This document shows, piece after piece, positions 8,600 through 61,596 of a stretch of DNA of 64,000 nucleotides. The position numbers and the translations under genes were made by a program. Source of the DNA: Peptococcaceae bacterium BICA1-8 (GTDB taxonomy: Bacteria > Bacillota > Peptococcia > Peptococcales > BICA1-8). The notes beneath the pieces are model-generated. The model made no database searches and was not told the DNA's origin. It worked only from the letters and a program-made list of their open reading frames with translations. The DNA is taken from assembly GCA_000802045.1 (NCBI GenBank), contig JUEF01000135.1:8287-72286 (forward strand), given 5' to 3'. Position 1 is the stretch's first letter; every line of letters starts with the position of its first letter.

Positions 8600-8619
8600 G
8601 CCTGGCTTTAACACCTATT

Positions 8620-10818: not shown

Positions 10819-10921
10819 TTTTCTAAACATTTTTTTGTTGAATGCCCGAAAGAAGGAATATGAGGAAATAATGGCGAAATAAAGGTAATAAAAAATTCTT
10901 ATAGTTTGGGGGCATTTGATA

Positions 10922-11833
10922 TTGGTTAATGATAGCATTAGGGTCTTTCTGGCGGTAGCAGACAAAAGGAACTTTTCTAAGGCTGCTAAATCCTTGTTTT
11001 TGACCCAACCTGCAGTAAGCTTTCAGATTCAGATGCTAGAACAATATTATGGCACAGTCTTATTTGACAGAGTCAATCGCAATATTACATTAACATCTGC
11101 TGGTGAACTCCTATTGAGTTATGCGCAGGAATTAAGTACTCTTCAAGCAAATCTTGAAAGAGAAATGCAGGAGCTTACCGGTACAATTAAGGGTAGGTTG
11201 ATGCTGGGCGCTAGCACAACCATAGGTGAATATGTTTTGCCCTACCTGGTAGGAGGATTTAAAAAGCAATTTCCCGAAGTTGACGTAAGCTTAGTGGTAG
11301 CTAATACTGAGGATATTGAAACAAGTATTCTCAATACTACTTTAGATGTAGCATTAGTAGAGGGTCCTGTGAGTGGTAAAGATCTGAATACGGAGAAGTT
11401 TCTTGATGATGAATTAGTATTAATTACTCCGATGGATCACCCTTGGGTAAATAATAAAAGAATCTCTGTTTTTGAGTTAAGCCAATATCCTTTTATCACT
11501 AGAGAGAAAGGTTCAGGAACAAGGCATATTATGGAGAATGCTTTTAAAAAGGTGGGTTTTAACCCAAATAATCTGAACATTATAATGGAATTAGGTAGTA
11601 CTACTGCTATTAAAGCAGCAGTATCTAGCGGATTAGGTGTTTCAATCATTTCTGAATGGGCCGCTAAGGATTTGGTAAAACAAAACAAGTTGGCGACTAT
11701 AGCTATACATGAAACAAAGTTTGAACGCCAATTTACTGTTATTTATCATGAGAAAAAATTTAGAACAAAGGCTGCATATGAATTTCTAAACTTTTTGCGT
11801 AGTGAAGAGGTCCATGATATGCTAAAACAATAA
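10922..11833 (+). CDS. LysR-family transcriptional regulator (paralog 1, YeiE-like context)
   Basis: HTH region FSKAAKSLFLTQPAVSFQIQMLE. Start set by alignment to paralog 2 and a GGGGG RBS; the ORF track starts at 10916. Confidence 0.85.
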   Translation: MVNDSIRVFLAVADKRNFSKAAKSLFLTQPAVSFQIQMLEQYYGTVLFDRVNRNITLTSAGELLLSYAQELSTLQANLEREMQELTGTIKGRLMLGASTTIGEYVLPYLVGGFKKQFPEVDVSLVVANTEDIETSILNTTLDVALVEGPVSGKDLNTEKFLDDELVLITPMDHPWVNNKRISVFELSQYPFITREKGSGTRHIMENAFKKVGFNPNNLNIIMELGSTTAIKAAVSSGLGVSIISEWAAKDLVKQNKLATIAIHETKFERQFTVIYHEKKFRTKAAYEFLNFLRSEEVHDMLKQ

Positions 11834-11858
11834 TTTATTAATAAGGCAGGGAACGTTC

Positions 11859-12746
11859 GTGCTGATACGTAATAGTCTAAGTAAGGTTTTAAGGGAAAAA
11901 GAGATAACATTAGCACAACTAGCAGAGGAGAATAACATCCCCATAGCAACCTTAGAACAAATTTATTTAGGACACAAAGAGTTTACTCCTGAAATCTTAA
12001 ATAAAATAGCAGATTACTTAAATATTTCCCAAGAAGCTATATTATTTGACAGTAAAAAAAATATTTATGATAATATTGGTATCCAGCTCAGACAAATTAG
12101 GGAAGAAAAGAAGATGACCTTAATTCAATTGGGTAAAATATCCGGTGTTTCTTATACTCATATCAGTGAAATTGAGCGAGGGAAAACCTGCGCTTCCCTA
12201 AAAACTTTAGAAAAACTGGCCATAGTTTTAGAAATTCCTACAAGATATTTTTTTCAACTTGAGGAAAATTTTACCTTGGGTGATAAAGTAAGAAGGTTAA
12301 GGGAGAAGCAGAATCTTACCCAGGTTCAGCTAGCAGAAAAATTTGGTGTATCCCTAAGTCTAATAGGGCAAATTGAAACTGGTAGGGTTAAGCCTGCATT
12401 AGATACTTTACAAAGCATTGCCAATGTTTTTGGAGTGAATATTTGTTATTTTCTTATGACAGAAACTGAGGAAATGTCTTTGAGACAGGCGAACTCTGGC
12501 TGTGCAACTTCCTATGATAAACTTATAGAATTAACTCAAGGAATTCAGCCCCAAGGTTTTGCTTTAATAATTGATTTAATAAATGTATTAAAAACCCACA
12601 ATCGTTTTAATATCAATGATGAAATTATAAATAACCAGACTAAAGAACTATTAGATATTATGGCTGATCTTTCTGAGGATGATAAAAATTATATTATTGA
12701 AAACGCCCGTTGGGTTTTAAAAAAAGCAAAATCAAATACGCAATAA
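11859..12746 (+). CDS. Protein with three tandem XRE-type HTH domains plus a ~90-aa C-terminal domain
   Basis: Three repeats of the XRE pattern: ..ITLAQLAEENNIPIATLEQIYLG.., ..MTLIQLGKISGVSYTHISEIERGK.., ..LTQVQLAEKFGVSLSLIGQIETGR... Confidence 0.8.
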   Translation: MLIRNSLSKVLREKEITLAQLAEENNIPIATLEQIYLGHKEFTPEILNKIADYLNISQEAILFDSKKNIYDNIGIQLRQIREEKKMTLIQLGKISGVSYTHISEIERGKTCASLKTLEKLAIVLEIPTRYFFQLEENFTLGDKVRRLREKQNLTQVQLAEKFGVSLSLIGQIETGRVKPALDTLQSIANVFGVNICYFLMTETEEMSLRQANSGCATSYDKLIELTQGIQPQGFALIIDLINVLKTHNRFNINDEIINNQTKELLDIMADLSEDDKNYIIENARWVLKKAKSNTQ

Positions 12747-12768
12747 ATCGCCCAAAAGGCGATTTTTC
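12745..12768 (+). terminator. Intrinsic terminator
   Basis: AAATCGCC-CAAAA-GGCGATTT followed by TT; begins on the last base (12745) of the final sense codon CAA (12743-12745), so the TAA stop codon (12746-12748) lies inside the 5' stem. Confidence 0.7.
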
Positions 12769-13073
12769 CTATTTAGTACCTTCTACACTAGTTATATTCT
12801 GATAAGTCTTGTTAAATAAATTTACATTAATGTGACCGAACTTTCTTTAGATAAAAAGAAGGGAATAATAAAATAATTGTTGAATGTTGTAAATTGGGGT
12901 GATAAGGGACAGTATAAACATACATTATTAAACAAATTTCTTTACTATATTTTTCTGCTAGAAGTTTCTAAAATGGTTTAGAAATAAATAGTAGGTATTC
13001 AACGAAAGAGTGTAAAATCTAATTAATAAATATAAAAAAACTATTAATTATTTATGAAAGGTGGAATACGACT

Positions 13074-13985
13074 TTGTTAAATGATAGTATTAGAGTATTT
13101 CTGACAGTTGTTGATAAAAAAAGTTTTTCTAAGGCTGCAAAAGCATTGTTTCTTACACAGCCAGCTATTAGTTTTCAAATTCAGATGCTTGAAGAATATT
13201 ATGGGACAAGACTTTTTGATAGGGTAAGTAGGAATATTTCTTTGACTCAGGCCGGGCATTTATTGCTTGGATATGCTAATCACATGACTAAATTGCAAAG
13301 TGAGCTAGAGAGAGAAATGCAAGAATTAACCGGAACTATCAAAGGACGGCTATTAATCGGTGCCAGTACAACTATTGGTGAATATATTGTTCCCTATCTT
13401 TTAGGTGCATTTAAGAAAAAATATCCTGAGGTAGAGCTCTCCTTAGAGGTTGGTAATTCAGAGGATATTGAAAATAAGATTCACGATACATCATTGGATA
13501 TAGGGCTTGTGGAAGGACCGGTAACCGTTAAGGATATTGAAAAGGAACTGTTTTTAAAAGACCAAATGGTTTTAGTAGTTTCCCATGACCACCCTTGGGC
13601 TCAACTGGATAAAATATCCGTATTTGAATTAGATAAATTCCCCTTTATTTCTAGAGAAAAGGGGTCAGGGACAAGAATTGAGACTGAGCAGCATTTGAAA
13701 AAGACGGGTTTTTCTGCAAATAATTTAAAAGTTATTATGGAATTGGGAAGTACTTCTGCGATAAAAGCAGCAGTGGAAAGCGGCTTAGGTATGTCTATTA
13801 TCTCTAAGTGGGCCGCAAAAGAAAAGGTTAAACTGGGGCAGCTTGCGCAGCTTAATTTCAAGGAGGATATTTTTGAGAGAGATTTTAATGTTATCCACCA
13901 TAAGAAAAAGTTCCGTACCCAGGCAGCTGATGAGTTTCTGCGTTTTATAAAAACAAGTGAGGCTTTAGATTTATTAGAAAGGTAG
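13074..13985 (+). CDS. LysR-family transcriptional regulator (paralog 2)
   Basis: Collinear with the 10922-11833 product along its whole length (same HTH and TGTIKGRL motif). TTG start after AAGGTGG. Confidence 0.85.
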   Translation: MLNDSIRVFLTVVDKKSFSKAAKALFLTQPAISFQIQMLEEYYGTRLFDRVSRNISLTQAGHLLLGYANHMTKLQSELEREMQELTGTIKGRLLIGASTTIGEYIVPYLLGAFKKKYPEVELSLEVGNSEDIENKIHDTSLDIGLVEGPVTVKDIEKELFLKDQMVLVVSHDHPWAQLDKISVFELDKFPFISREKGSGTRIETEQHLKKTGFSANNLKVIMELGSTSAIKAAVESGLGMSIISKWAAKEKVKLGQLAQLNFKEDIFERDFNVIHHKKKFRTQAADEFLRFIKTSEALDLLER

Positions 13986-14664: not shown

Positions 14665-16002
14665 TTATACTGTTAATACTGGAATTGGGAATATAACGCC
14701 ACTGAGTAGTAACCAAGCAACTAATAAGGTTAATACTAGGTTAAAGCTTTGACCTACAATGTATAACCAAAGTGGCTTACCGCCTTGGACAAGCTCAGCC
14801 ATTTCTTTAAAGTTGGACTCAAGGCCGATACAGACAAATGCCATACAGAAGCACCAGCCCTTCCAGCCACCTGTTAGACCTAATAGAGTTTTTGTTTCTT
14901 TAGCACCAATTGCCGGCTCAACAATAAAGGAGAAGATTAAAGACGCACCAATAAAACCAAGGATAAATTTGGGGAAACGGTGCCAGATTTCATCTGCTCC
15001 CACAGAAGGTCCGTCAACATCTTTCTCAACTTTTGTTGCAAAAAATACAGCAATGGCAAAAGCAATAACACCAATTAATACGTTTTGAATCATTTTAACA
15101 AGAGCAGCAACCTGACCCCCTAGTGGCCCTAATGCTTCACCGGCTAATACAACAGCACCTGTTGCGTCAACTGTACCACCGATCCAAGCACCGCCAACCA
15201 TAGGATCCATACCAATAGCTTTAATAAAGATAGGCATACCAACCATCATTAAAACTGTAAAAATTAAGGATAAGCCAATTGCAAAGGTTAAATCGTCCTT
15301 TTTAGCTTTGGAAGCGGCTGCTGCAGCGATAGCGGCTGAAACACCACAAACAGAAGTAGCAGTAGCGATAACTATTACCATAGGCTTACTGGTCATTTTA
15401 AGTATTTTTGTACCATAATGCCACATGAAAATAATTACGATAGGAGTAACGAACCAAGCAATACCTAAACCATAGATACCAAATTTAACTACATTGGAGA
15501 AAAGAACCTCAGCACCCATTAAAACCAGACCGGTTTTAATGTAGTATTCAGTTTTTACAGCAGGCTTTAACCAATCGGGAGTTTTTACAGTATTACTTAC
15601 TAAAAGACCTACTGCTAATGCCCAGAAAGCATACTCTACATATTTTTTCATAGTTGCTTGAGCACCTAATATATAGGCAATTGTAGCTAAGAGGAATATT
15701 ACAGGGAAGGCAATTGCAAATTTAGGTACGTTTTCGCCCATAAATACTAATCCAATTGAAAAAAGAGCAGTTAATACAACCATTGTGATTAGTAAACTAG
15801 CAATATCAAAAGAACCTAAGAAACTTGGAACCTTTTCGGTTCCCCATGTTGCGATCTTGGATGCATTAAACTTAAAAGCTCCTGTGGATTTACTGATAGC
15901 AGCTATTATAATTACGATAAGTCCAAGCCAAATTGCCCACCAGTCTTCTTTCTTTATTAAATCCGACCATTTAAACTTACTAGCTGTTACGACATCTGAC
16001 AT
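14665..16002 (-). CDS. YeiH/UPF0324 family membrane transporter (putative sulfate-exporter family), paralog 1
   Basis: Polytopic, 445 aa. Start moved to MSDVV (16002) by alignment with the paralogs and a GGAGGTG RBS 8 nt upstream. Confidence 0.9.
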   Translation of the reverse strand: MSDVVTASKFKWSDLIKKEDWWAIWLGLIVIIIAAISKSTGAFKFNASKIATWGTEKVPSFLGSFDIASLLITMVVLTALFSIGLVFMGENVPKFAIAFPVIFLLATIAYILGAQATMKKYVEYAFWALAVGLLVSNTVKTPDWLKPAVKTEYYIKTGLVLMGAEVLFSNVVKFGIYGLGIAWFVTPIVIIFMWHYGTKILKMTSKPMVIVIATATSVCGVSAAIAAAAASKAKKDDLTFAIGLSLIFTVLMMVGMPIFIKAIGMDPMVGGAWIGGTVDATGAVVLAGEALGPLGGQVAALVKMIQNVLIGVIAFAIAVFFATKVEKDVDGPSVGADEIWHRFPKFILGFIGASLIFSFIVEPAIGAKETKTLLGLTGGWKGWCFCMAFVCIGLESNFKEMAELVQGGKPLWLYIVGQSFNLVLTLLVAWLLLSGVIFPIPVLTV

Positions 16003-16383
16003 ATAAAGCACCTCCAAAATTTAAAATATTTTATAGGGTATTTGAACAATTAATTTTTTTAATCCCTCCTTATAATTTAGATAAATAACGCCGCGGTACA
16101 GTCATTGAGCATATTGATGCTGTCATACACACAAATTTAGGGTGTGTTTTAATTATAAGTTATCAAAAAAAATCTTTATATCATTCTTTAATACCATCTT
16201 TATTAAATGCATTAGGAAAATTTATTAATTTAGGAAAAAGCATTTGTTGAACTAAAAAATTAAGATAATGCAGGTAGATGAAATTAGACTAAATCTCATA
16301 ATAATAAAATAAAGAGGCCAGATGGCCGCTTTAAAAGGAAATAATTATTCAATTATCATTTTTCGTAGTAGTAGCATTTTAGT

Positions 16384-16420
16384 GAAAAATGGCACCATTC
16401 CTGAAGGAATGGTGCCATTT
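16384..16420 (-). terminator. Intrinsic terminator of YeiH paralog 2
   Basis: On the minus strand: AAATGGCACCATTCC-TTCA-GGAATGGTGCCATTT followed by TT. The stem is related to the paralog 1 terminator, with compensatory changes. Confidence 0.8.
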
Positions 16421-16424
16421 GATA

Positions 16425-17768
16425 TTATACTGTTAATACTGGAATTGGGAAGATAACGCCGCTTAGTAATAACCAGGCTACTAATAAGGTTAATACTAAG
16501 TTAAAGCTTTGTCCCACGACATACAGCCAAAGTGGCTTACCACCTTGAACAAGCTCAGCCATGTCCTTGAAGTTAGACTCAAGACCAATTGATACGAAGG
16601 CCATGCAGAAGCACCATGCTTTCCAACTTCCAGATAAGGAAAGTATAGCTTTAGTATCCTTTGTACCTATTGAAGGCTCAACCAAGAAGGAGAATATTAT
16701 CGATCCTACAATAAAACCAAGAATAAATTTAGGGAAACGGTGCCAAATTTCATCGGCGCCCACAGAGGGTCCATCAACATCTTTTTCAACTTTTGTTGCA
16801 AAAAATACGGCAATGGCAAAAGCGATAACACCAATAAGAACGTTTTGAATCATTTTAACCAGAGCAGCAACTTGACCTGCTAATGGCCCTAAGGTTTCTC
16901 CGGCAAGTACAACTGCACCGGTAGCATCAATGGTTCCACCCATCCATGCTCCACCAAGCATCTCATTCATACCAATAGCTTTAATGAACATAGGCATGAA
17001 GACCATCATTAATACGGTGAAGATAAGGGTTAAACCGATGGCAAAGGTTAAGTCTTCTTTCTTTGCTTTAGAAGCAGCGGCAGCGGCAATAGCTGCAGAA
17101 ACCCCGCAAACCGAAGTAGCTGTCGCAATAACGATAACCATAGGTTTGCTGGTCATTTTCAAGATTTTGGTACCATAATACCACATAAAGACTATAACAA
17201 TTGGAGTAACAAACCAAGCAATACCTAGACCGTAGAAACCAAATTTAACAACATTGGAGAATAGTACTTCAGCACCCATCAGTACAAGACCTGTTTTAAT
17301 ATAGTATTCTGTTTTAACGGCCGGCTTTAGCCACTCGGGGGTTTTTACGGTATTACTTACCGCAAGTCCGACCACTAGTGCCCAGAAGGCGTACTCAATA
17401 TATTTTTTCATTGTGGCTTGAGCACCAAATACATAAGCAATTGTTGCTAAGATAAAAACAACAGGGAAGGCGATTAAGAAGCCTTTCACATCTTCTCCCA
17501 TAACTTTAAGACCGAGAGCAAATAATGCACCTAGTACAATTAGACTGAAAATTAATAAGCCTACTTGACCATTAAAAGCATCCATAATGCTAGGCGCCTT
17601 TTCATTTCCCCAAGTAGCTATTTTGGCGGCCTTAAAGGCGAAAGCACCTGTAAATTTACTTATTGCTGCTAAAGCTAATACAATGAATCCAAGCCAAATT
17701 GCCCACCAATCTTCTTTCTTTGTTAAATCAGACCATTTAAACTTACTAGCTGTTACGATATCTGACAT
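16425..17768 (-). CDS. YeiH/UPF0324 family membrane transporter, paralog 2
   Basis: 447 aa. Very similar to paralog 1, including an identical C-terminus LLSGVIFPIPVLTV. Confidence 0.9.
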   Translation of the reverse strand: MSDIVTASKFKWSDLTKKEDWWAIWLGFIVLALAAISKFTGAFAFKAAKIATWGNEKAPSIMDAFNGQVGLLIFSLIVLGALFALGLKVMGEDVKGFLIAFPVVFILATIAYVFGAQATMKKYIEYAFWALVVGLAVSNTVKTPEWLKPAVKTEYYIKTGLVLMGAEVLFSNVVKFGFYGLGIAWFVTPIVIVFMWYYGTKILKMTSKPMVIVIATATSVCGVSAAIAAAAASKAKKEDLTFAIGLTLIFTVLMMVFMPMFIKAIGMNEMLGGAWMGGTIDATGAVVLAGETLGPLAGQVAALVKMIQNVLIGVIAFAIAVFFATKVEKDVDGPSVGADEIWHRFPKFILGFIVGSIIFSFLVEPSIGTKDTKAILSLSGSWKAWCFCMAFVSIGLESNFKDMAELVQGGKPLWLYVVGQSFNLVLTLLVAWLLLSGVIFPIPVLTV

Positions 17769-18097
17769 TTAATACACCTCCATAAAATTTTAGATAAAGA
17801 CGGAAGAAAAACATAGTAAAAATTTTAGTCAGTCCTCACCACCCATATAAATGACTTATTTGATCGATAAATTATTACGATTATATTATATTAAAAATTG
17901 TTATACACTGATAATCCACCATTCTTACTATTTTTTGACAAAAAAGTAAGTCAGGTAATAAGGGGTTGCGCTATATATAAATTTAGTATAAAAACATAAA
18001 TAGGAAAATACTTGCGGCTACTTGTTTTATTCTTTTTTAGCAGGAAATTGGGTACTTTTAGTTGAAGTAAAGCATGAGGTGATATGAGGTGATAAAT

Positions 18098-18367
18098 ATG
18101 AAGCAGAGGCCAAAAATAAATAGTAAGTTAGGGAAAATGAGTTTATTGATAATTTTAATAATTATAGTAGTAATTGTTTATGCTATTGTAGTAGATCCTT
18201 GGAACATAAGTGAGGCGCCTTACGGCGCTGGGGATTATTATTATGATGAAGTAGAGGGTTATGATTTTAGCATAAGCATAGGTACTAAACATCCTATTAT
18301 ATTTTTCATTTTGTTTTTTGGCTGGGCTTTTGGCTGCTGGCATTTTTTAAAGTGGATGGAAAGATAA
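18098..18367 (+). CDS. Small two-TM membrane protein, family A/B (paralog of 14086-14382)
   Basis: ATG at 18098 lies 5 nt after GAGGTG. Shares motifs with the 14086-14382 product. Confidence 0.7.
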   Translation: MKQRPKINSKLGKMSLLIILIIIVVIVYAIVVDPWNISEAPYGAGDYYYDEVEGYDFSISIGTKHPIIFFILFFGWAFGCWHFLKWMER

Positions 18368-18463
18368 AGCTTGGGATTTTTGATAAAAAGGATCATAATT
18401 AAACTTCGTTATAAAAAAAATAGGTTAATGAGAGAAAAACAGTAATAATAATTGAGTGTAAAG

Positions 18464-18492
18464 AAAAAAAGCCGAGCTATTGCTCGGCTTTA
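18464..18492. terminator. Bidirectional terminator (small ORF on +, YeiH paralog 3 on -)
   Basis: A7-GCCGAGC-TATT-GCTCGGC-TTTAATT. Confidence 0.75.
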
Positions 18493-18499
18493 ATTAATT

Positions 18500-19843
18500 T
18501 TACATTGTTAAATTGGGTATTGGGAAGATAATTCCACTTAACAGCAACCAAGCCACTAAGAGAGTTAATACTAAGTTAAAGGTTTGACCAACAATGTATA
18601 ACATTAATGGCTTGCCGCCTTGTACAAGCTCAGCCATATCTTTAAAGTTAGATTCTAATCCTATACAGGTAAAGGCCAGACAGAAGCACCATCCTCTAAA
18701 GCCTTTAGCTAAGCCCGTAACGCCCTTTGTTCCAGCTGCACCCAAAACGGGTTCTACTATAAAGGAAAAAATGACTGAGGCTGCTATGAAACCAAGGATG
18801 AATTTTGGGAAGCGATGCCAGATTTCACTAGCTCCTACAGCAGGGCCGTCGACATCTTTGTCTACTTTAGTTGCAAAAAATACAGCTATGGCGAAGGCGA
18901 TAACGCCTATAAGTACGTTTTGAATCATTTTAACCATTGCAGCTACTTGACCAGCCAAAGGTCCCAATGCTTCTCCAGCAAGAACAACTGCACCGGTAGC
19001 ATCAATTGTTCCACCCATCCAGGCTCCACCTATCATTTCGTTCATGCCAATAGCTTTAATAATCATAGGCATGAAGATCATCATTATAACTGTAAAAATG
19101 AGGGTTAAACCAATGGCGAAAGTTAAATCTTCTTTTTTAGCTTTAGAAGCTGCAGCAGCGGCAATGGCTGCCGAAACACCACAAACAGAAGTCGCGGTAG
19201 CGATTACAATAATCATGGGTTTGCTAACCATTTTTAATACTCTAGTACCGTAATACCACATAAATATTACTACTATTGGAGTAACAAACCAGGCTATACC
19301 TAATCCGTAAATACCGAATTTTACAATGTTTGAAAAGAGAACTCCAGAACCCATTACAACCAAACCTGTTTTTATATAATACTCTGTCTTAACAGCTGGT
19401 TTTAGCCATTCAGGGGTCTTTATAGTATTGCTAACCAAAAGACCAATAGCCAGCGCCCAAAAAGCGTAGCCTAAATAGTTTTTTATGCCGGCATTAGCTG
19501 AAAAGAGATAGGCTAATGTTGAAAGAATGAATACTACCGGGAAACCAATGAGGAATTTCCCAACATCACCGCCCATTACTTTCAGACCGATAGCGAATAA
19601 AGCGCCTAGTATTATCATTGTTATTAATAATGATGGTAAAGTACCATTAAAGGAATCAAAAATACTAGGTGCTTTCTCTACACCCCAGGTATTAAGTTTA
19701 GCGGCTTTAAAGCTAAAAGTACCAGTAGTAGAACTAATAAATGAGAGAATAAGGATAATAAATCCAAGCCAAATTGCCCACCAATCTTCTTTATTGATAA
19801 GATCTTTCCATTCAAACTTACTAGTCGTTACGACATCAGACAT
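18500..19843 (-). CDS. YeiH/UPF0324 family membrane transporter, paralog 3 (most diverged)
   Basis: 447 aa, collinear with paralogs 1 and 2. AGGAGGTG RBS. Confidence 0.9.
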   Translation of the reverse strand: MSDVVTTSKFEWKDLINKEDWWAIWLGFIILILSFISSTTGTFSFKAAKLNTWGVEKAPSIFDSFNGTLPSLLITMIILGALFAIGLKVMGGDVGKFLIGFPVVFILSTLAYLFSANAGIKNYLGYAFWALAIGLLVSNTIKTPEWLKPAVKTEYYIKTGLVVMGSGVLFSNIVKFGIYGLGIAWFVTPIVVIFMWYYGTRVLKMVSKPMIIVIATATSVCGVSAAIAAAAASKAKKEDLTFAIGLTLIFTVIMMIFMPMIIKAIGMNEMIGGAWMGGTIDATGAVVLAGEALGPLAGQVAAMVKMIQNVLIGVIAFAIAVFFATKVDKDVDGPAVGASEIWHRFPKFILGFIAASVIFSFIVEPVLGAAGTKGVTGLAKGFRGWCFCLAFTCIGLESNFKDMAELVQGGKPLMLYIVGQTFNLVLTLLVAWLLLSGIIFPIPNLTM

Positions 19844-25436: not shown

Positions 25437-25574
25437 GTCGGAAATACTTAGGGTCTAGCTTGAGCGTCTGACAATACTATGGGGACAAATTGTTGCGTCT
25501 GACATCGCTAATGGGTTGAGTTTTAGGGTCTGACAGTACTATGGGGACATTTTATTGCGTTTGACACTAGCTTT
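25437..25574 (+). repeat. Array of five ~31-bp units with GTCTGACA core (direct orientation)
   Basis: Core starts at 25437 (degenerate), 25466, 25497, 25528 and 25559. Spacings are 29, 31, 31 and 31 bp. Confidence 0.9.
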
Positions 25575-28526: not shown

Positions 28527-28552
28527 CATTTACTCACAGGTTAATATATTGG

Positions 28553-28655
28553 GTCTGACATATGCTTGGGGGTGAAATATCGCGTCTGACAATACTCCTG
28601 GGTGAACATTTTGCGTCTGACATTTTACTTTTGGGTTGAGATGCTGCGTCTGATG
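28553..28655 (+). repeat. Array of four ~31-bp GTCTGACA units (direct orientation)
   Basis: Cores at 28553, 28584, 28615 and 28648 (the last reads GTCTGATG). Confidence 0.9.
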
Positions 28656-28658
28656 AAT

Positions 28659-28696
28659 GGTGCTCTGTGCTCAGTGCTCAGTGTCCAGTGCCCAGT
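28659..28696 (-). repeat. Heptamer block GTGCTCA/GTGTCCA, the inverted copy of the CTGGGCACTGGACACTGAGCAC cassette
   Basis: The reverse complement reads ACTGGGCACTGGACACTGAGCACTGAGCACAGAGCACC. Confidence 0.85.
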
Positions 28697-28707
28697 AAAA
28701 AACTAAT

Positions 28708-28872
28708 AAAGCTAGTGTCAGACGCAATAAATTGTCCCCATAGTACTGTCAGACCTTACAGCTTAACCCATGAGTAATTGTCAGACGCCCAAGCTAGACC
28801 CTTGAGTATTGTCCGACCCTAAAACTTAACCTATAAGTAGATGTCAGAAACGCAAAAGCTAGACCCCTAAGT
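28708..28872 (-). repeat. Array of five ~31-bp GTCTGACA units in inverted orientation
   Basis: TGTCAGAC-type cores at 28716, 28747, 28779, 28810 (TGTCCGAC) and 28842. 28708-28755 is 46/48 identical to the reverse complement of 25527-25574. Confidence 0.9.
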
Positions 28873-28885
28873 AGAAAGGAAGTGT

Positions 28886-29734
28886 TTGAGAGTGAATTTT
28901 GTAAAAATGCATGGAGCAGGAAATGATTTTATTTTAATTAATTTATTAGAGGGAAATTCGCCGTTAGATTATTCCTTACTGGCTCCTAAGCTTTGCGACC
29001 GGAATTTTGGAATTGGTGCTGATGGACTTTTGTTCATTATGCCTTCCGAGACCGCTGATATTAAAATGAGGATTATTAATTCCGATGGTAGTGAAGCTGA
29101 AATGTGTGGTAATGGTATTAGATGTTTTGCAAAATTTGTTTATGAAGAGGGAATAATTAATAAAAATATAATAGAAGTAGAAACCCTAGCGGGTAAAATC
29201 ATCCCGGAAATTATTTTAAATAATAACAAAGTAGCTTCTGTCCGAGTTGATATGGGTGAGCCTAAGCTAGAAAGAAGCCAAATTCCAATGTTTGGAGAAG
29301 AGGGACGGGTAATTAAGGAGAAGTTAGTGATTGCTGAGAAAGAATTTGAAGTCACTGCTGTTAGTATGGGTAATCCCCATTGCGTTATTTTTGTACCTAA
29401 TATAAAAGAGATAGAAATAGAAAAATGGGGTCCTTTAATTGAAAAGCATCCAGTTTTCCCCCGAAAAACAAATGTAGAATTTGTCCAAGTTATTACCCCC
29501 TCTGAGGTTGTTATGCGAGTATGGGAAAGGGGTGCAGGCATAACTTTAGCCTGTGGTACAGGAGCGTGTGCAACCTTAACTGCGGGTGTTCTAAATAATT
29601 ATATTAATAGGAAGGCTTCTATAAAATTACTTGGTGGTGAATTAACTGTTGAATGGGAAGAAAATAATCACCTCTATATGACAGGTCCGGCGATTGAAGT
29701 ATTTCGCGGGGTAATTAGTATAGGTAGTCTATAG
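28886..29734 (+). CDS. dapF: Diaminopimelate epimerase
   Basis: FVKMHGAGNDF N-terminus and catalytic Cys motifs (MCGNGIRC, ACGTGACA). Start is TTG 28886 or GTG 28892. Confidence 0.9.
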   Translation: MRVNFVKMHGAGNDFILINLLEGNSPLDYSLLAPKLCDRNFGIGADGLLFIMPSETADIKMRIINSDGSEAEMCGNGIRCFAKFVYEEGIINKNIIEVETLAGKIIPEIILNNNKVASVRVDMGEPKLERSQIPMFGEEGRVIKEKLVIAEKEFEVTAVSMGNPHCVIFVPNIKEIEIEKWGPLIEKHPVFPRKTNVEFVQVITPSEVVMRVWERGAGITLACGTGACATLTAGVLNNYINRKASIKLLGGELTVEWEENNHLYMTGPAIEVFRGVISIGSL

Positions 29735-29773
29735 TCGATAGTCCATAATCGATAATTATAGCGAAAATTAGCT

Positions 29774-30778: not shown

Positions 30779-30888
30779 AATAGTGTGACGGCTATGTGGC
30801 TTACTGAATGACAGTGTGTAAGCTTAAGGGATATACAAATTGTCAGTGCTACAGTGCTACAGAAATTTAGTTGGTTTGTTTATTCTCC

Positions 30889-30916
30889 TAGTCACTAGTC
30901 ACTAGTCACCAGTAAC
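30889..30916 (+). repeat. Heptamer tandem TAGTCAC x3 plus a degenerate fourth unit, 18 nt upstream of the remA start
   Basis: TAGTCACTAGTCACTAGTCACCAGTAAC. An octamer pair AGTGCTAC x2 lies at 30845-30860. Confidence 0.9.
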
Positions 30917-30933
30917 TATATAAGGAGGGCAAA

Positions 30934-31828: not shown

Positions 31829-32035
31829 ATGATTAGGCCTTCAATAGATGTTTTGGTTACCAAGGCTGATAGTAAATATTCACTGGTTGTTGCAACTGCC
31901 AAAAGGGCAAGAAGTATTGTAGAGGGTGCGCCTATAATGGTAACTACCGATTCTACTAAACCCGTTACTTGTGCATTATTTGAAATTGCAGCAGGTAAAA
32001 TAACATACGAAAGAACTAAAACCGGAATCAAATAA
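31829..32035 (+). CDS. rpoZ: DNA-directed RNA polymerase subunit omega
   Basis: MIRPSIDVLV..KYSLVVATAKRAR motif. ATG preceded by a TAGGAGG RBS; the listed longer ORF overlaps the gmk end. Confidence 0.85.
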   Translation: MIRPSIDVLVTKADSKYSLVVATAKRARSIVEGAPIMVTTDSTKPVTCALFEIAAGKITYERTKTGIK

Positions 32036-32086
32036 GTCTATTAGTGGGCGAGACTTTTGGGGAATCGATGGAGGGCAGTTTTATGG

Positions 32087-32240
32087 GATGCATCTACTCA
32101 TAGGCTTTACTGCAAGATGCATCAGATGAATGCCAATTTTTTTGATGCATCCTTTAAGTTAGACCGCAGAGCAGATGCCTCAATAGGATTTTACATGCAT
32201 AGGATGCATCCCAAAATGTATGCCAAAATAGGATTCTAGG
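32087..32240 (+). repeat. ~29-bp periodic array with GATGCATC palindromic core
   Basis: Cores at 32087, 32116, 32144, 32174 (GATGCCTC) and 32203. Preceded by TATTAGTGGGCGAG at 32038-32051. Confidence 0.85.
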
Positions 32241-32284
32241 TTGATTGAAATATTGACCAGTAACTATGATTGGGGTTTTTCCTA

Positions 32285-33478
32285 ATGTTAAGAAATAAAA
32301 CCATTGTTGTTGGTGTAACAGGAGGGATTGCAGCCTATAAAACTGCTGAAATAGTAAGTAGGCTAAAAAAGTTAGGTGCTGATGTTTATTGTATAATGAC
32401 AAAAGGTGCACAGGCTTTTCTTACGCCCCTTACTTTAAGTACTTTGTCAGGTAATCCTGTAATAACTGATATGTTTCAGAAACCTGAAAAATGGAATGTA
32501 GAACACATAGCACTTGCTGATAAGGCAGATTTCTTTTTGATAGCACCAGCGACCGCCAATGTTGTTGGTAAGGTTTCCTCTGGAATTGCAGATGATTTTT
32601 TAACAACAACCATAATGGCAACAAAAGCTAAAGTTATTTTTGCTCCGGCTATGAATGTGAATATGTATAATAATCCTATTTTCCAGGAAAATATGACTAA
32701 ACTGAAAAATCTAGGTTATTATTTTATTGAACCTCAGGAAGGCAATTTAGCTTGTGGCTACAGTGGAAAAGGAAAAATGGCTGAGCCAGAATCTATTATG
32801 AATTATTTATTGGATTTTTTGAAAAAGGACTTGGAAGGAAAAAATATTTTGATTACTGCAGGACCTACTAGAGAGCCAATTGACCCAGTCCGTTATTTGA
32901 CAAATAGAAGCAGCGGCAAAATGGGTTATGCTCTGGCTAGGTGTGCATATAGTAGAGGAGCCCAAGTCACTTTAATATCAGGACCTACTAACTTGGACAG
33001 GCCTCAGGGTGTAGTTTTTATTCCTGTTGAGTCTGCAGAAGAAATGTTTGTAGAAGTAAACAAGCATTATCTAGAACAGGATATAATTATTAAGGCTGCT
33101 GCTGTGGCTGATTATCGTCCCCAAAGCTACAATGGACAGAAAGTAAAGAAGCTAAATAATGATTTGCAATTACAGCTAGAGAGAACTACAGATATTCTAA
33201 GCTTTCTGGGAGAAAACAAAGGAAATAAGGTTTTGGTTGGATTTGCAGCAGAAACTAATGATATAAAAGAAAATGCTCAGAAAAAACTAATAAAAAAGAA
33301 TTTGGACTTCATCGTAGCTAATGATGTTACCGCAAAGGATGCTGGTTTTAATTATGATACCAATAAAGTGACCTTGTACTATAGAGATGGTAATCAACAG
33401 GACTTGCCTCTTTTAAGTAAAGATGAAGTTGCCAATTATATTCTTAATGAAGTAAGCAAGCTATTAAAAAAGGAGTGA
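32285..33478 (+). CDS. coaBC: Bifunctional phosphopantothenoylcysteine decarboxylase / synthetase
   Basis: [15 protein letters not shown] flavoprotein motif and a C-terminal CoaB domain. Start at the ATG at 32285 (MLRNK). Confidence 0.9.
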
Positions 33479-33483
33479 TTGTT

Positions 33484-34671
33484 TTGCGCAAATTTTTTAC
33501 TTCCGAATCGGTAACAGAGGGTCATCCTGATAAAATATGTGACCAGATTTCCGATGCTGTTTTGGACGCGATTTTCCAATGTGACCCTCAGGCTAGGGTT
33601 GCATGCGAAACTGCGGTAACTACCGGTTTGGTTTTAGTTATGGGTGAAATTACTACATCCTGTTATGTAGATATCCCAAAAATTGTTAGAGAAACACTTA
33701 GGGATATTGGCTATACTCGAGCTAAGTATGGTTTTGATTCTGACACTTGTGCTGTAATAACTTCCATTGATGAGCAATCTTCTGATATTGCTCTAGGTGT
33801 TGATAAGGCACTTGAAGCTAAAACAGGAGAAATGCTTGACGACCTCATTGAGGCAATTGGGGCAGGAGATCAAGGAATGATGTTTGGTTATGCTTCCAAT
33901 GAAACACCTGAGTATATGCCCTTACCAATATCCTTAGCACATAAGCTTACTAAAAAGCTCAGTGATGTTAGAAAGAATAATGAATTAGATTATTTATTAC
34001 CTGATGGCAAATCCCAGGTTACTGTTGAATATGAGGGGGATAATCCATTAAGGGTTGATACTGTTGTTATTTCTACACAGCATAGTTCAGCGGTAGATCT
34101 TGAGACAATAAGAAAAGATGTGATTGAGAAAGTAATAAAGCCTGTCATATCTGCTGAATTAATTGATGATAAAACCCGATATTTAATAAATCCTACCGGC
34201 CGTTTTGTCATTGGTGGTCCCCAAGGTGATTCTGGCTTAACTGGAAGGAAAATTATCGTAGATACATATGGTGGTATGGCTCGTCATGGTGGCGGAGCGT
34301 TTTCTGGTAAAGACCCCACTAAGGTTGACAGATCTGCTGCTTATGCTGCAAGATATGTGGCCAAAAATGTAGTAGCTGCTGGTTTAGCCGACCGCTGTGA
34401 AATTCAACTTGCTTATGCAATTGGTGTTGCTCACCCTGTGTCAGTTTTAGTTGAGACCTTTGGAACAAACAAGGTCGCTGAAGAGAAAATCTCCCACGCT
34501 ATTAATAAAGTATTCGACCTGCGGCCTGCAGCAATTATTAAAGATTTAGATTTGAGAAAGCCTATCTATAGGCAGATTGCAGCATATGGGCATTTTGGTC
34601 GACCCGATCTTGATTTACCCTGGGAGCGGCTAGACAGAGTTGAACAATTGAAAAAAGAAGTAGGTATGTAA
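33484..34671 (+). CDS. metK: S-adenosylmethionine synthetase
   Basis: [20 protein letters not shown] and [16 protein letters not shown] motifs. TTG at 33484 lies 8 nt after AGGAG; the ORF track starts at 33475. Confidence 0.92.
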
Positions 34672-34979: not shown

Positions 34980-35048
34980 CTGGGCACTGGACACTGAGGA
35001 CTGGTCACGAACCCCGAAAATTTCTACGGACTCGCCCACTCGCCCACT
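34980..35048 (+). repeat. CTGGGCACTG...CACGAACCCCGAAAA cassette plus octamer pair CGCCCACT x2, ending 25 nt before the priA start
   Basis: CTGGGCACTGGACACTGAGGACTGGTCACGAACCCCGAAAATTTCTACGGACTCGCCCACTCGCCCACT. Confidence 0.85.
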
Positions 35049-37532: not shown

Positions 37533-37561
37533 CAATAGACAATAGACAATAGACCAAAGAC
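37533..37561 (+). repeat. Heptamer tandem CAATAGA x3 plus a degenerate unit, in the priA-def spacer
   Basis: CAATAGACAATAGACAATAGACCAAAGAC, followed by a TGTCCCCAGTCATTA word. Confidence 0.9.
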
Positions 37562-49991: not shown

Positions 49992-50011
49992 TATATTAAA
50001 GTTAATAATTT

Positions 50012-50121
50012 ACTCTTTCGGGGTTAGGTGCAATTCCTTACCGGCGGTATAGCCCGCGAGCCAAATGGCAGATCCGGTTTAATTCCGGAGCCGACAGTTA
50101 AAGTCTGGATGGAAGAAAGAG
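50012..50121 (+). promoter_or_regulatory. FMN riboswitch (RFN element) aptamer
   Basis: Matches the RFN core: CTCTTTCGGGGTTAGGTGCAATTCCTTACCGGCGGT..AGCCCGCGAGCC...GGTTTAATTCCGGAGCCGACAGTTAAAGTCTGGATGGAAGAAAGAG. The P1 stem closes CTCTTTC with GAAAGAG. Confidence 0.92.
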
Positions 50122-50176
50122 ATTGATTACTATTCATTGCATTTTTGCTTTTGAATGGTAATTATCTTGTTTTATT

Positions 50177-50212
50177 GCCCCGAAGCTCTTATTGCTTCGG
50201 GGCTTATTTGTG
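50177..50212 (+). terminator. Riboswitch expression-platform terminator
   Basis: GCCCCGAAGC-TCTTATT-GCTTCGGGGC followed by TTATTTGTG. Confidence 0.75.
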
Positions 50213-50214
50213 TA

Positions 50215-50500
50215 GTTTTATTAGTGGGCGAGTGGGCGAGAAGTATTATTTAACCACGGGCCCCTCCGGGGCACACCGATAAACACTGTTAAACGATAAG
50301 TGACTAAATTAATGGTTGATGCATCCCTTAAGTTAGACCTTTGAGCAGATGCATCCTGTAATTTTCACTTGCATCGGGTGCCTCCTAATCGGTGACACGG
50401 TAGCACGTCAAGGAAAGCTAGACATTCATGTTCACACGTCCTTACTAGTCACAGATCCCCGGCCACTGAGTACGAATCCCGAAAGACTGTCCCCTAATAC
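50215..50500 (+). repeat. Composite of dispersed repeat modules between the riboswitch terminator and ribU
   Basis: TAGTGGGCGAGTGGGCGAG (50222-50240). Solo ATTTAACCACGGGCCCCTCCGGGGCACACCGAT end (50248-50281). GATGCATC units (50318, 50348). AAGCTAGAC, TAGTCAC, TACGAATCCCGAAAG and TGTCCCC words (50415-50495). Confidence 0.85.
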
Positions 50501-50523
50501 AAAAAACGAGGAGCGATTTTAAA

Positions 50524-51087: not shown

Positions 51088-51096
51088 GTTACTGGC

Positions 51097-51125
51097 TAGT
51101 GACTAGTGACTAGTGACTGGTGACT
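51097..51125 (-). repeat. Heptamer tandem TAGTGAC x3 plus TGGTGAC (reverse complement of the TAGTCAC family)
   Basis: TAGTGACTAGTGACTAGTGACTGGTGACT. Confidence 0.9.
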
Positions 51126-51131
51126 GGTAAT

Positions 51132-51166
51132 AAGGCTATAGTCCATTGACTATAGTCTATAGCCTT
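51132..51166. repeat. Perfect 10-bp-stem hairpin made of CTATAG words (possible weak ribU terminator)
   Basis: AAGGCTATAG-15 nt-CTATAGCCTT. Contains the ATAGTCCAT word also seen at 29739, 34808 and 52453. Confidence 0.6.
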
Positions 51167-51276
51167 TAGCCGATAGTCAATAGACTATAGTAGAAGTTTT
51201 TAATGACCTGCTTAGCAGGTCTTTTCTTTATCATAAATTGACTATATACTGATTGTTTTTCATAAAGGTCCTTTAT

Positions 51277-51347
51277 CTGGGCACTAGTCACTGAACAACT
51301 AGTCACTGAACAACTAGTCACTGAACAACTGGACACGAAACCAAAAA
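51277..51347 (+). repeat. CTGGGCACT cassette containing an exact 15-bp tandem repeat x3, ending GGACACGAAACCAAAAA
   Basis: AGTCACTGAACAACT at 51286, 51301 and 51316 (exact copies). Confidence 0.95.
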
Positions 51348-61551: not shown

Positions 61552-61596
61552 AAAAAAGTGACTAGTCACCAGTCACTAGTAACTAGTCACTTTTTT
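61552..61596. repeat. Perfect 15-bp-stem hairpin built from TAGTCAC-family words and flanked by A6/T6
   Basis: AAAAAAGTGACTAGT-CACCAGTCACTAGTA-ACTAGTCACTTTTTT, ending 21 nt before the next start codon. Confidence 0.85.

Follow-up and report, generated by a model that had tools for sequence, protein, structure and literature searches.

Short repeats of bacterial intergenic DNA

Among the repeats of Firmicutes, BOX of Streptococcus pneumoniae (boxA-boxB(n)-boxC) and bcr of the Bacillus cereus group are modular, intergenic and present in many copies; they are non-coding, vary in the number of their internal units and occur in both orientations. The subject of this study is a stretch of 64,000 nucleotides of Peptococcaceae bacterium BICA1-8 (contig JUEF01000135.1, positions 8,287 to 72,286 of the forward strand), hereafter the window, in which a periodic array of the 8-bp palindrome GATGCATC lies between the genes rpoZ and coaBC. 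It is proposed, with a probability of roughly 0.6, that the array belongs to one copy (32057-32226) of a lineage-specific, multicopy and non-coding mosaic element that is copied as a block, recalls BOX as well as bacterial interspersed mosaic elements (BIME) and small dispersed repeats (SDR), and is tolerated as a passenger at rpoZ-coaBC. BOX differs from it in having a 45-nt unit, predicted stable RNA structures and no regularly spaced short palindromic core, and shares no sequence similarity with it.

SDR were reportedly described in heterocystous cyanobacteria by Elhai et al. in 2008 (Genome Res 18:1484, cited in PMC4390886 and PMC3733652), together with heptamer arrays known as short tandemly repeated repetitive (STRR) sequences; they are said to be intergenic modules of 21-27 nt that often lie within heptamer tandems or larger mini-elements. 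One of them, SDR5, inserts precisely within the octamer palindrome HIP1 (PMC4390886). The element of BICA1-8 is likewise made of very short dispersed intergenic modules associated with an 8-bp palindrome, as in the SDR5/HIP1 case, and the heptamers CACTAGT, GCTCAGT and CTATAGT of the window share the pattern NNNYAGT with STRR1 (CCCCAGT). However, it occurs in Bacillota and its sequences are unrelated to SDR, its modules lie between complete cores with a strict period of 28-30 bp and travel as blocks of 170-330 nt, and its core is not over-represented outside the arrays.

The BIME of Enterobacteria and Pseudomonas are intergenic mosaics, mostly between co-directional or convergent genes, in which palindromic units alternate, are joined by few linkers, vary in number and occur in many copies (PMC3733652, PMC3116915), and in all of this the present element resembles them. 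It differs in that the repetitive extragenic palindromic (REP) units of BIME are hairpins of 20-40 nt with a GTAG/CGTC tag and a link to REP-associated tyrosine transposases (RAYT, of the Y1 type), whereas the 8-bp palindrome is too short for a hairpin and carries no tag, and no RAYT is seen near the elements (94 flanking open reading frames (ORFs) and the 64-kb window). A 2013 survey of tagged REPs includes no Firmicutes among its listed phyla.

The type I element between rpoZ and coaBC

Exact copies of GATGCATC are found at 32087, 32116, 32144, 32203, 50318 and 50348. These six words compare with 0.59 +/- 0.71 expected in the window, a count of six or more being reached in 0 of 100 shuffles, and all of them are confined to two intergenic blocks, one in the rpoZ-coaBC spacer and one in the leader of ribU. 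A degenerate word, GATGCCTC, occupies the fourth core position of the former at 32174, and the cores are spaced by 29, 28, 30 and 29 bp in the spacer and by 30 bp in the leader. The original prediction, made from the sequence of the window, had described this periodic array between rpoZ and coaBC, and both its core positions and its spacing of 28-30 bp are confirmed.

The unit of about 29 bp consists of the palindromic core and a filler of 20-22 nt that is drawn from a small set of modules. In the window the element begins with an A filler and continues with GATGCATC (32087), an M+ filler, GATGCATC (32116), a second A filler, GATGCATC (32144), an M- filler, the degenerate GATGCCTC (32174), an E filler, GATGCATC (32203) and a tail. 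Together with nine copies from Clostridiaceae bacterium BRH_c20a it yields a consensus of approximately 170 nt, which reads ..CGATGAATGnCAGnTTTTTGG, GATGCATC, TACTATTAGGTTATACTGCAT, GATGCATC, AGATGAATGnCAATTTATTTT, GATGCATC, CTTTAAGCTAGACCTAGGTGCA, GATGCCTC, ATTnAATATTnACATGCATAG, GATGCATC, CCATAATATT.. and is termed type I. The fillers are position-specific across the ten aligned copies, each matching the same position in other copies much better than its own neighbours, and the fourth core is degenerate in almost every type I copy including that of the window. The type I block therefore predates its arrival at rpoZ-coaBC. When the window is searched with profiles of type I and of the related type II composite, each profile finds a single match (Table 1) and there is no further copy.

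The array is introduced by the word TATTAGTGGGCGAG, which is present exactly at 32039 and 50219, upstream of both blocks, and with two mismatches on the reverse strand at 35039 (three matches against 0.31 expected). The earlier observation that this word precedes both blocks thus stands, and it extends beyond the window: expanded to three units, TATTAGTGGGCGAG opens the rpoZ-coaBC spacer in two relatives (L115 and L119) and the ribU leader in a third (L149). The octamer tandem to which it belongs, AGTGGGCG or AGTGAGCG, is found with 2-3 units at mosaic edges (32042-32052, 50223-50240 and, on the reverse strand, 35030-35048; also L115, L119 and L149). In several lineages it is placed right after a stop codon or terminator or, reversed, right before a ribosome-binding site.

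A multicopy family in related genomes

One genome per GTDB species was scanned for three GATGCATC cores 27-31 bp apart (a gap of N19-23 after the 8-bp core), which returned at least 111 loci. Family loci among the matches listed number at least 14 in BRH_c20a, at least about 30 in AS01afH2WH_13, at least 8 in Betzabe_MAG005, at least 6 in UBA3933 and at least one in Bins.048, all of which are related metagenome-assembled genomes (MAGs) of Bacillota, uncultured and Peptococcaceae-like. Periodic enrichment across whole genomes, on which the original prediction depended, is therefore present in relatives, with many loci per genome in related MAGs. The other matches that were inspected proved to be tandem repeats of no relation to the family, found for the most part in DNA that is coding-like or rich in GC, for example in Dactylosporangium and Actinoplanes with a period of 14 bp.

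All but one of 70 arrays are intergenic (69/70). Between co-directional genes 18 run with and 13 against the direction of the genes, and array orientation relative to flanking genes is thus random; only two of 53 classified contexts lie between divergent genes. A Pfam scan of 94 ORFs that flank arrays in five genomes yields ordinary and unrelated housekeeping genes with no recurrent family. In AS01afH2WH_13 (AS01) the GATGCATC block forms the middle of a composite of about 330 nt, between particular heptamer and octamer tandems, that is present in at least 17 copies. Its core columns are 94% and its filler columns about 84% identical to the consensus, a difference that is partly biased by the method of locus finding. 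Judging from these alignments, the composite has clearly been copied as a block to many intergenic sites.

Several MAG contigs start or end inside an array (L015, L051, L058 and L096 of AS01afH2WH_13, and the start of L152 of BRH_c20a). Since these intergenic repeats are assembly breakpoints, contigs break at the arrays and the copy numbers drawn from these MAGs are underestimates. A search for the triple-core pattern in IMG/VR gave 14 matches, all of them unrelated tandem repeats, and a phage association was rejected; nor did the spacer match anything in the phage and plasmid collections by blastn. In the literature no description of GATGCATC arrays was found, BRH_c20a being mentioned only as a MAG.

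Filler modules and kinship with the GTCTGACA arrays

Across the family genomes 212 of 217 core-to-core intervals measure 28-30 bp (45 of 28 bp, 103 of 29 bp and 64 of 30 bp, with four of 31 bp and one of 32 bp). Module A, CGATGAATGnCA..TTT, opens with a degenerate core (CGATGAATG), module M has the skeleton TRCTnnnnGGKTnnAnnTnnnGC and is used in both orientations (M+ and M-), and modules D and E complete the set. The master arrangement of BRH_c20a and BICA1-8 is A, M+, A, M-, E, that of AS01 is mostly A, M+, A, D, M-, E, and Betzabe_MAG005 also contains A, M+, D, M-. As these masters differ in module content only unit by unit, the arrangements vary by whole units, and the presence or absence of module D in a copy amounts to exactly one filler and one core. 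At the level of sequence the family thus displays genome-specific masters, in-register variation of whole units, recombinant forms and rapid turnover, with little room for doubt.

The window also contains arrays of a different core, GTCTGACA, with a period of 31-32 bp, at 25451-25566 and at 28538-28640 with 28715-28873; further ones lie in L089 (4580-4900), L110 (6310-6700) and L152 (1-300 and 3060-3440). The original prediction held that these share the layout of the GATGCATC arrays with another core, and the comparison of fillers bears this out. The M filler TGCTTAAAGGTCTAGCTTAAGG, found between GATGCATC cores, is nearly identical to ATTGCTTAAAGGTCTAGCTTGAGC, found between GTCTGACA cores (20/22 in the best pair), the two filler sets have a mean best alignment score of 4.18 as against 2.63 +/- 0.33 when shuffled (about 4.7 standard deviations), and a common skeleton, TACTnnnGGGTnnAnnTnnTGC, can be drawn for both. 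The two kinds of array thus do have one layout with different cores. It might reflect a common generating mechanism with interchangeable cores, as was originally proposed.

Three different words enclose the AAGCTAGAC module as direct repeats, namely GATGCATCC with a period of 30, ATTGTCAGAC with a period of 32 and GACACGTCA or CACGTC with a period of 30-31, and some copies of this M/AAGCTAGAC module lie inside octamer arrays of the form (GGCACGNN)n. It is also contained in three copies of a 56-nt unit (TAAAAGCTAGACTCTGGTGCCGAGGAATGTCCCC..GGGACACACCTCCT) at 1880-2049, where the flanks CCTCC/GAGG are inverted and not direct. The GTCTGACA arrays often form inverted pairs, in which a forward array, a short heptamer centre and a reverse array fill the whole intergenic region. 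The 18 kb shared by BICA1-8 and BRH_c20a contain two orthologous GTCTGACA arrays, which differ between the genomes by whole units and heptamer counts.

The type II element in the ribU leader

A related copy in the ribU leader had been predicted from 38 nt of similarity. Positions 32142-32181 do recur at 50316-50355 with 88% identity over 40 nt (direct-repeat family D18), and the profile search enlarges this copy to about 170 nt, giving the type II composite (Table 1). Its layout is GATGCATC (50318), an M- filler, GATGCATC (50348), an A- filler, the degenerate core GGTGCCTC, the position of one missing unit, GACACGGTAGCAC and a AAGCTAGAC module between two CACGTC words. Alignment with five BRH_c20a copies reveals that the window copy is without a unit of about 37 nt which they contain. 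In one BRH_c20a copy (L090) a type I head is joined to a type II tail.

The mosaic of which type II is part begins downstream of a terminator at about 50180-50215 that belongs to a flavin mononucleotide (FMN) riboswitch. It measures 300 nt in the window and 245 nt in L149, and the two open with the octamer word but differ in the rest. L150 and L151, two relatives free of repeats here, have the ribosome-binding site of ribU within about 30 nt after the terminator. Within the interval 50010-50523 approximately 300 nt of mosaic separate the FMN riboswitch and its terminator from the start of ribU.

Turnover at the same site in relatives

The window was compared with relatives at the same site, using the identity of CoaBC as a measure of distance. 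In BICA1-8 itself (100%) the type I element sits in a spacer of 249 nt; BRH_c20a (L114, 92%) has 233 nt of a different mosaic that matches the type II tail only; JGI 3300031485 (L115, 90%) has 110 nt made of AGTGGGCG octamers and heptamers; L119 (79%) has 283 nt of octamers, hairpin and heptamers; and L117 and L118 (79%) have 32 nt free of repeats. The type I element is thus not at rpoZ-coaBC in the closest relatives compared and, as the spacers of relatives differ, its presence there is a recent lineage-specific gain in a hypervariable spacer. The ribU leader follows the same pattern of presence, absence and turnover, and the spacer between priA and def has been replaced between conserved flanks in BICA1-8 and BRH_c20a.

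Known classes that do not accommodate the element

Two ORFs that overlap the array had been regarded as artefacts, which is correct. The 60-aa frame at 32057-32239 is open in the window copy only, its nine homologous copies having 1-9 stops in every frame, and the minus-strand ORF at 32154-32411 extends antisense into the start of coaBC. With no ORF conserved among the copies a protein-coding gene is ruled out. Against a structured RNA or riboswitch stand the lack of a family match, the lack of covariation and the random orientation: Rfam at the gathering threshold returns only the FMN riboswitch from the entire window, and when 31950-32350 is searched at E <= 1 it adds a chance miRNA match (E = 0.94), while RNAalifold on nine copies finds covariation in 0 of 27 predicted pairs and a consensus fold that pairs cores with cores only.

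Like clustered regularly interspaced short palindromic repeats (CRISPR), the array has short palindromic words that are evenly spaced by stretches of similar length. Its only invariant repeat, however, measures 8 bp and not approximately 23-55 nt, its fillers of 20-22 nt are conserved among 10 BRH_c20a and BICA1-8 copies and 17 AS01 copies, each array has just 5-7 units while a genome has tens of such loci, and cas genes are absent from the neighbourhood. Miniature inverted-repeat transposable elements (MITE) such as RUP, NEMIS/Correia, Nezha and Bcr1 are similarly intergenic, 100-400 bp long, present in many copies and variable among close relatives, but terminal inverted repeats of about 15-30 bp are not definable here, the consensus ends being unrelated beyond the palindromic core and 2-3 nt. 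The borders of the element fade into octamer and heptamer modules, with neither a consistent target-site duplication nor a clean empty site, and no related transposase was found among the 94 flanking ORFs or in the window.

A REP hairpin unit was rejected, because the perfect 8-bp palindrome of the core leaves no loop and the fillers show no self-complementarity. The element nevertheless shares with BIME a small repertoire of linkers (A, M+, M-, D and E), alternating orientation and many intergenic sites, and shares with SDR a module, M/AAGCTAGAC, that lies between three different flanking words and beside octamer and heptamer arrays. Avoidance of a restriction site does not apply, ATGCAT not being depleted in the window (24 observed, 15.4 expected).

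Nature and spread of the element

It is proposed that the mosaic element spreads by a copy-and-paste route, which could be a trans-acting enzyme that recognises its conserved words, or ectopic recombination or gene conversion via the short octamer and heptamer tandems that flank it. Identical cores would allow the number of units to shift, through replication slippage or unequal recombination between them. The arrival of a copy at rpoZ-coaBC would have lengthened the intercistronic region from about 30 to 249 nt without a recognisable terminator, and the copy would be tolerated as a passenger. Since no recognisable terminator has been added, coaBC is probably still co-transcribed with rpoZ, and the window copy in the operon is probably a neutral passenger.

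Several observations weigh against this proposal. Neither terminal inverted repeats nor a target-site duplication can be defined at the borders of the type I or AS01 composites, and no transposase or RAYT occurs in the Pfam scan of 94 flanking ORFs or in the 64-kb window (nine window ORFs scanned), so that these yield no agent for the copying step. Furthermore, the consensus of the family can still be recognised between genomes that share only about 70-75% identity in CoaBC, which would fit a host function, and the better conservation of cores than of fillers (94% against 84% in AS01) would also fit the binding of a protein.

The alternative that survives best, though an unlikely one, is the insertion of small modules. 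Here fillers of about 21-23 nt, above all M/AAGCTAGAC, would insert into short words or tandems and leave the same 8-10-nt word on both sides; repeated insertion would build arrays of 29-32 bp with a core set by the target, and the composites would be later block copies. This would account for the occurrence of the same 22-nt module between GATGCATC and GTCTGACA cores about 4.7 standard deviations above shuffles, for the three different direct-repeat flanks of the M/AAGCTAGAC module and its copies inside (GGCACGNN)n octamer arrays, for the presence or absence of module D as exactly one filler and one core, and for the SDR-like setting among heptamer arrays. However, no clean empty and filled pair of a single module is found at an orthologous locus, unequal recombination between cores with deletion of a unit gives the same patterns equally well, and every core in the 64 kb of unbiased sequence lies within an array, which leaves the prior existence of a target word undemonstrated. 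SDR5, moreover, divides HIP1 after its third nucleotide, between nucleotides 3 and 4, while each module here has a complete core on either side. It is doubtful, if conceivable, that the fillers of 21-23 nt and M/AAGCTAGAC in particular are autonomous spreading units, a Bacillota counterpart of cyanobacterial SDR that would rank among the smallest mobile DNA elements known. If they were, an insertion machinery, possibly RNA-templated, would be shared or exchanged between distant phyla whose intergenic DNA is rich in NNNYAGT heptamer arrays (Bacillota, Cyanobacteria, Beggiatoaceae).

Less likely again is that the array binds a protein, with GATGCATC and its half-site relatives (GATGAATG and ATGCATGG) as operators for a dimeric DNA-binding protein of the lineage, a nucleoid-associated protein or global regulator, and the arrays as high-avidity platforms or insulators. 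The perfect 8-bp palindrome, the density of related words in the best conserved columns, the persistence of the consensus across diverged genomes, the irrelevance of orientation expected of a symmetric site and the scarcity between divergent genes (2/53) are all consistent with this. Yet a spacing of 28-30 bp corresponds to approximately 2.8 helical turns and would turn successive cores off one face of the DNA, the sister GTCTGACA arrays have another period (31-32 bp) that is set by filler length, occupancy of the site is not kept even at 92% CoaBC identity and the flanking genes have no common function. The excess conservation of the cores is itself modest and partly due to the method of locus finding, and no candidate protein was identified.

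An element that acts at the RNA level is improbable. The self-complementary GAUGCAUC words would form stem-loops in the operon mRNA that serve as processing or stability determinants, in the manner of REP in E. coli and BOX in pneumococci, and uncouple rpoZ from coaBC. Transcription of the element, placed as it is inside operons and 5' leaders, is almost certain by prediction, core 1 pairs with core 5 and core 2 with core 3 in a predicted fold whose stability exceeds that of shuffled sequences (z = -2.4), and the flanking heptamer arrays are often inverted around elements and terminators. The z-score of about -2.4 is nonetheless obtained on both strands of the spacer, the opposite strand folding equally stably, none of the 27 pairs is compensatory and the covariation term is unfavourable, orientation with respect to transcription is random (18 to 13), Rfam gives no match, and complementarity between the M+ and M- fillers stays at only about 60% from copy to copy.

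Local tandem expansion of a 29-bp unit followed by drift, the neutral alternative considered originally, is excluded because paralogous copies with the same fillers and the same degenerate fourth core exist (E = 4.7e-49), even if a spacer wholly different in the closest relatives and the absence of a Tandem Repeats Finder call at 32038-32240 would suit strongly diverged units. A simple local tandem repeat was rejected on the same ground, each unit matching the same position in distant copies of the sister genome better than it matches its neighbours. The array did not arise at this site but is a copy of a pre-formed composite. An unrelated spacer in close relatives had been named as evidence against the original prediction, and on this point the outcome is mixed: the spacer is indeed unrelated in the closest relative, but the cause is turnover of dispersed elements and not a neutral local expansion.

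Locus, neighbouring genes and other repeats

The local gene order is yicC-remA-gmk-rpoZ-coaBC-metK-priA, and CoaBC of the window is 100% identical to the Peptococcaceae bacterium BICA1-8 protein and 92% identical to that of BRH_c20a, which originates from the Mont Terri Opalinus Clay hydrogen-injection experiment (PMC5067608). Two assemblies made independently, Logan SRR1539101 and JGI 3300002838, contain the locus with the same sequence, so it is not an assembly artefact. The metK gene (33475-34671) lies between coaBC and priA, its start overlapping the coaBC stop by 4 nt, in the same order in all relatives examined. No terminator-like site is predicted in a scan of the rpoZ-coaBC spacer, and a weak promoter-like match is located at 32241-32270 in its 3' part. 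Elsewhere in the window three tandem paralogues of a PF03601 (Cons_hypoth698) membrane protein with 72-84% DNA identity lie beside duplicated genes for LysR-type regulators (14665-19843 and 10916-13985).

Table 1 Positions of the repeat elements, genes and leader features in the window
Feature	Position	Strand	Basis	Remarks
rpoZ (RNA polymerase omega)	31829-32035	+	PF01192 on called gene in identical contigs L001/L002; ORF list	
TATTAGTGGGCGAG	32039-32052	+		Remnant of (AGTGGGCG)n octamer tandem; opens repeat mosaic right after rpoZ stop
Type I composite repeat	32057-32226	.	nhmmer, profile of 9 copies, E = 4.7e-49	
Spacer 3' part	32227-32284	+	Alignment of window, L114, L115, L119	Heptamer remnant (CCAGTAACTA) and TGATTGGGGTTTTTCC upstream of coaBC start; outside element; common to relatives
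coaBC	32285-33478	+	PF02441 and PF04127	
FMN riboswitch aptamer	50010-50124	+	Rfam RF00050, 116.8 bits	
TATTAGTGGGCGAGTGGGCGAG octamer tandem	50219-50240	+		Opens ribU-leader mosaic right after riboswitch terminator
GC-rich hairpin module (ACCACGGGCCCCTCCGGGGCACAC)	50244-50293	.	Direct-repeat family D10	Between octamers and type II element; copies at 8616, 34706
Type II composite repeat, ribU leader	50294-50467	.	nhmmer, E = 5.9e-45	
Heptamer arrays	30888-30918, 37533-37561, 61557-61592, 51096-51191, 51283-51330, 28660-28696, 29725-29754			Also in L114, L115, L119

Many intergenic regions of the window are a patchwork of heptamer tandems, the AGTGGGCG octamer tandem, a GC-rich hairpin in inverted pairs and GTCTGACA arrays. 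Heptamer tandems of NNNYAGT form (CTAGTCA, GTGCTCA, CTATAGT, CAATAGA) are found in many spacers, and several of them stop a few bases short of a ribosome-binding site; the array upstream of remA keeps its position in four relatives. The heptamer unit AGTCACT also resembles the WATCACW heptads bound by the omega repressor. In Beggiatoaceae, TAACTGA repeats are located just upstream of start codons, and their reverse complement fits the NNNYAGT pattern (PMC4679880). The GC-rich hairpin module (ACCACGGGCCCCnnnGGGGCACACGG) forms the inverted pairs 8616-8665/8782-8820 and 34706-34755/34939-34977, approximately 170 and 230 nt apart, in addition to the single copy of the ribU leader. The pair 34706/34939 is conserved in BRH_c20a, and the layout of such pairs recalls REPIN doublets.

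Implications for the lineage

For annotation, the array is to be masked as a repeat and both ORFs dropped; it represents neither a gene nor a CRISPR, and neither a small RNA nor a coaBC-specific operator. In this lineage of deep clay rock and anaerobic digesters, intergenic DNA is made of interchangeable octamer and heptamer tandems, inverted GC-rich hairpins and arrays of 29-32 bp. Such regions are wholly replaced between genomes with 92% identity in a housekeeping protein, and close relatives are free of repeats at the two loci compared. To our knowledge, detailed accounts of comparable architecture come mainly from heterocystous cyanobacteria, and a second and unrelated lineage provides an independent comparison for the origin and movement of very short repeats. 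The 170-300 nt that have been added inside an essential operon and behind a riboswitch, with no recognisable terminator, constitute natural test cases for neutrality.

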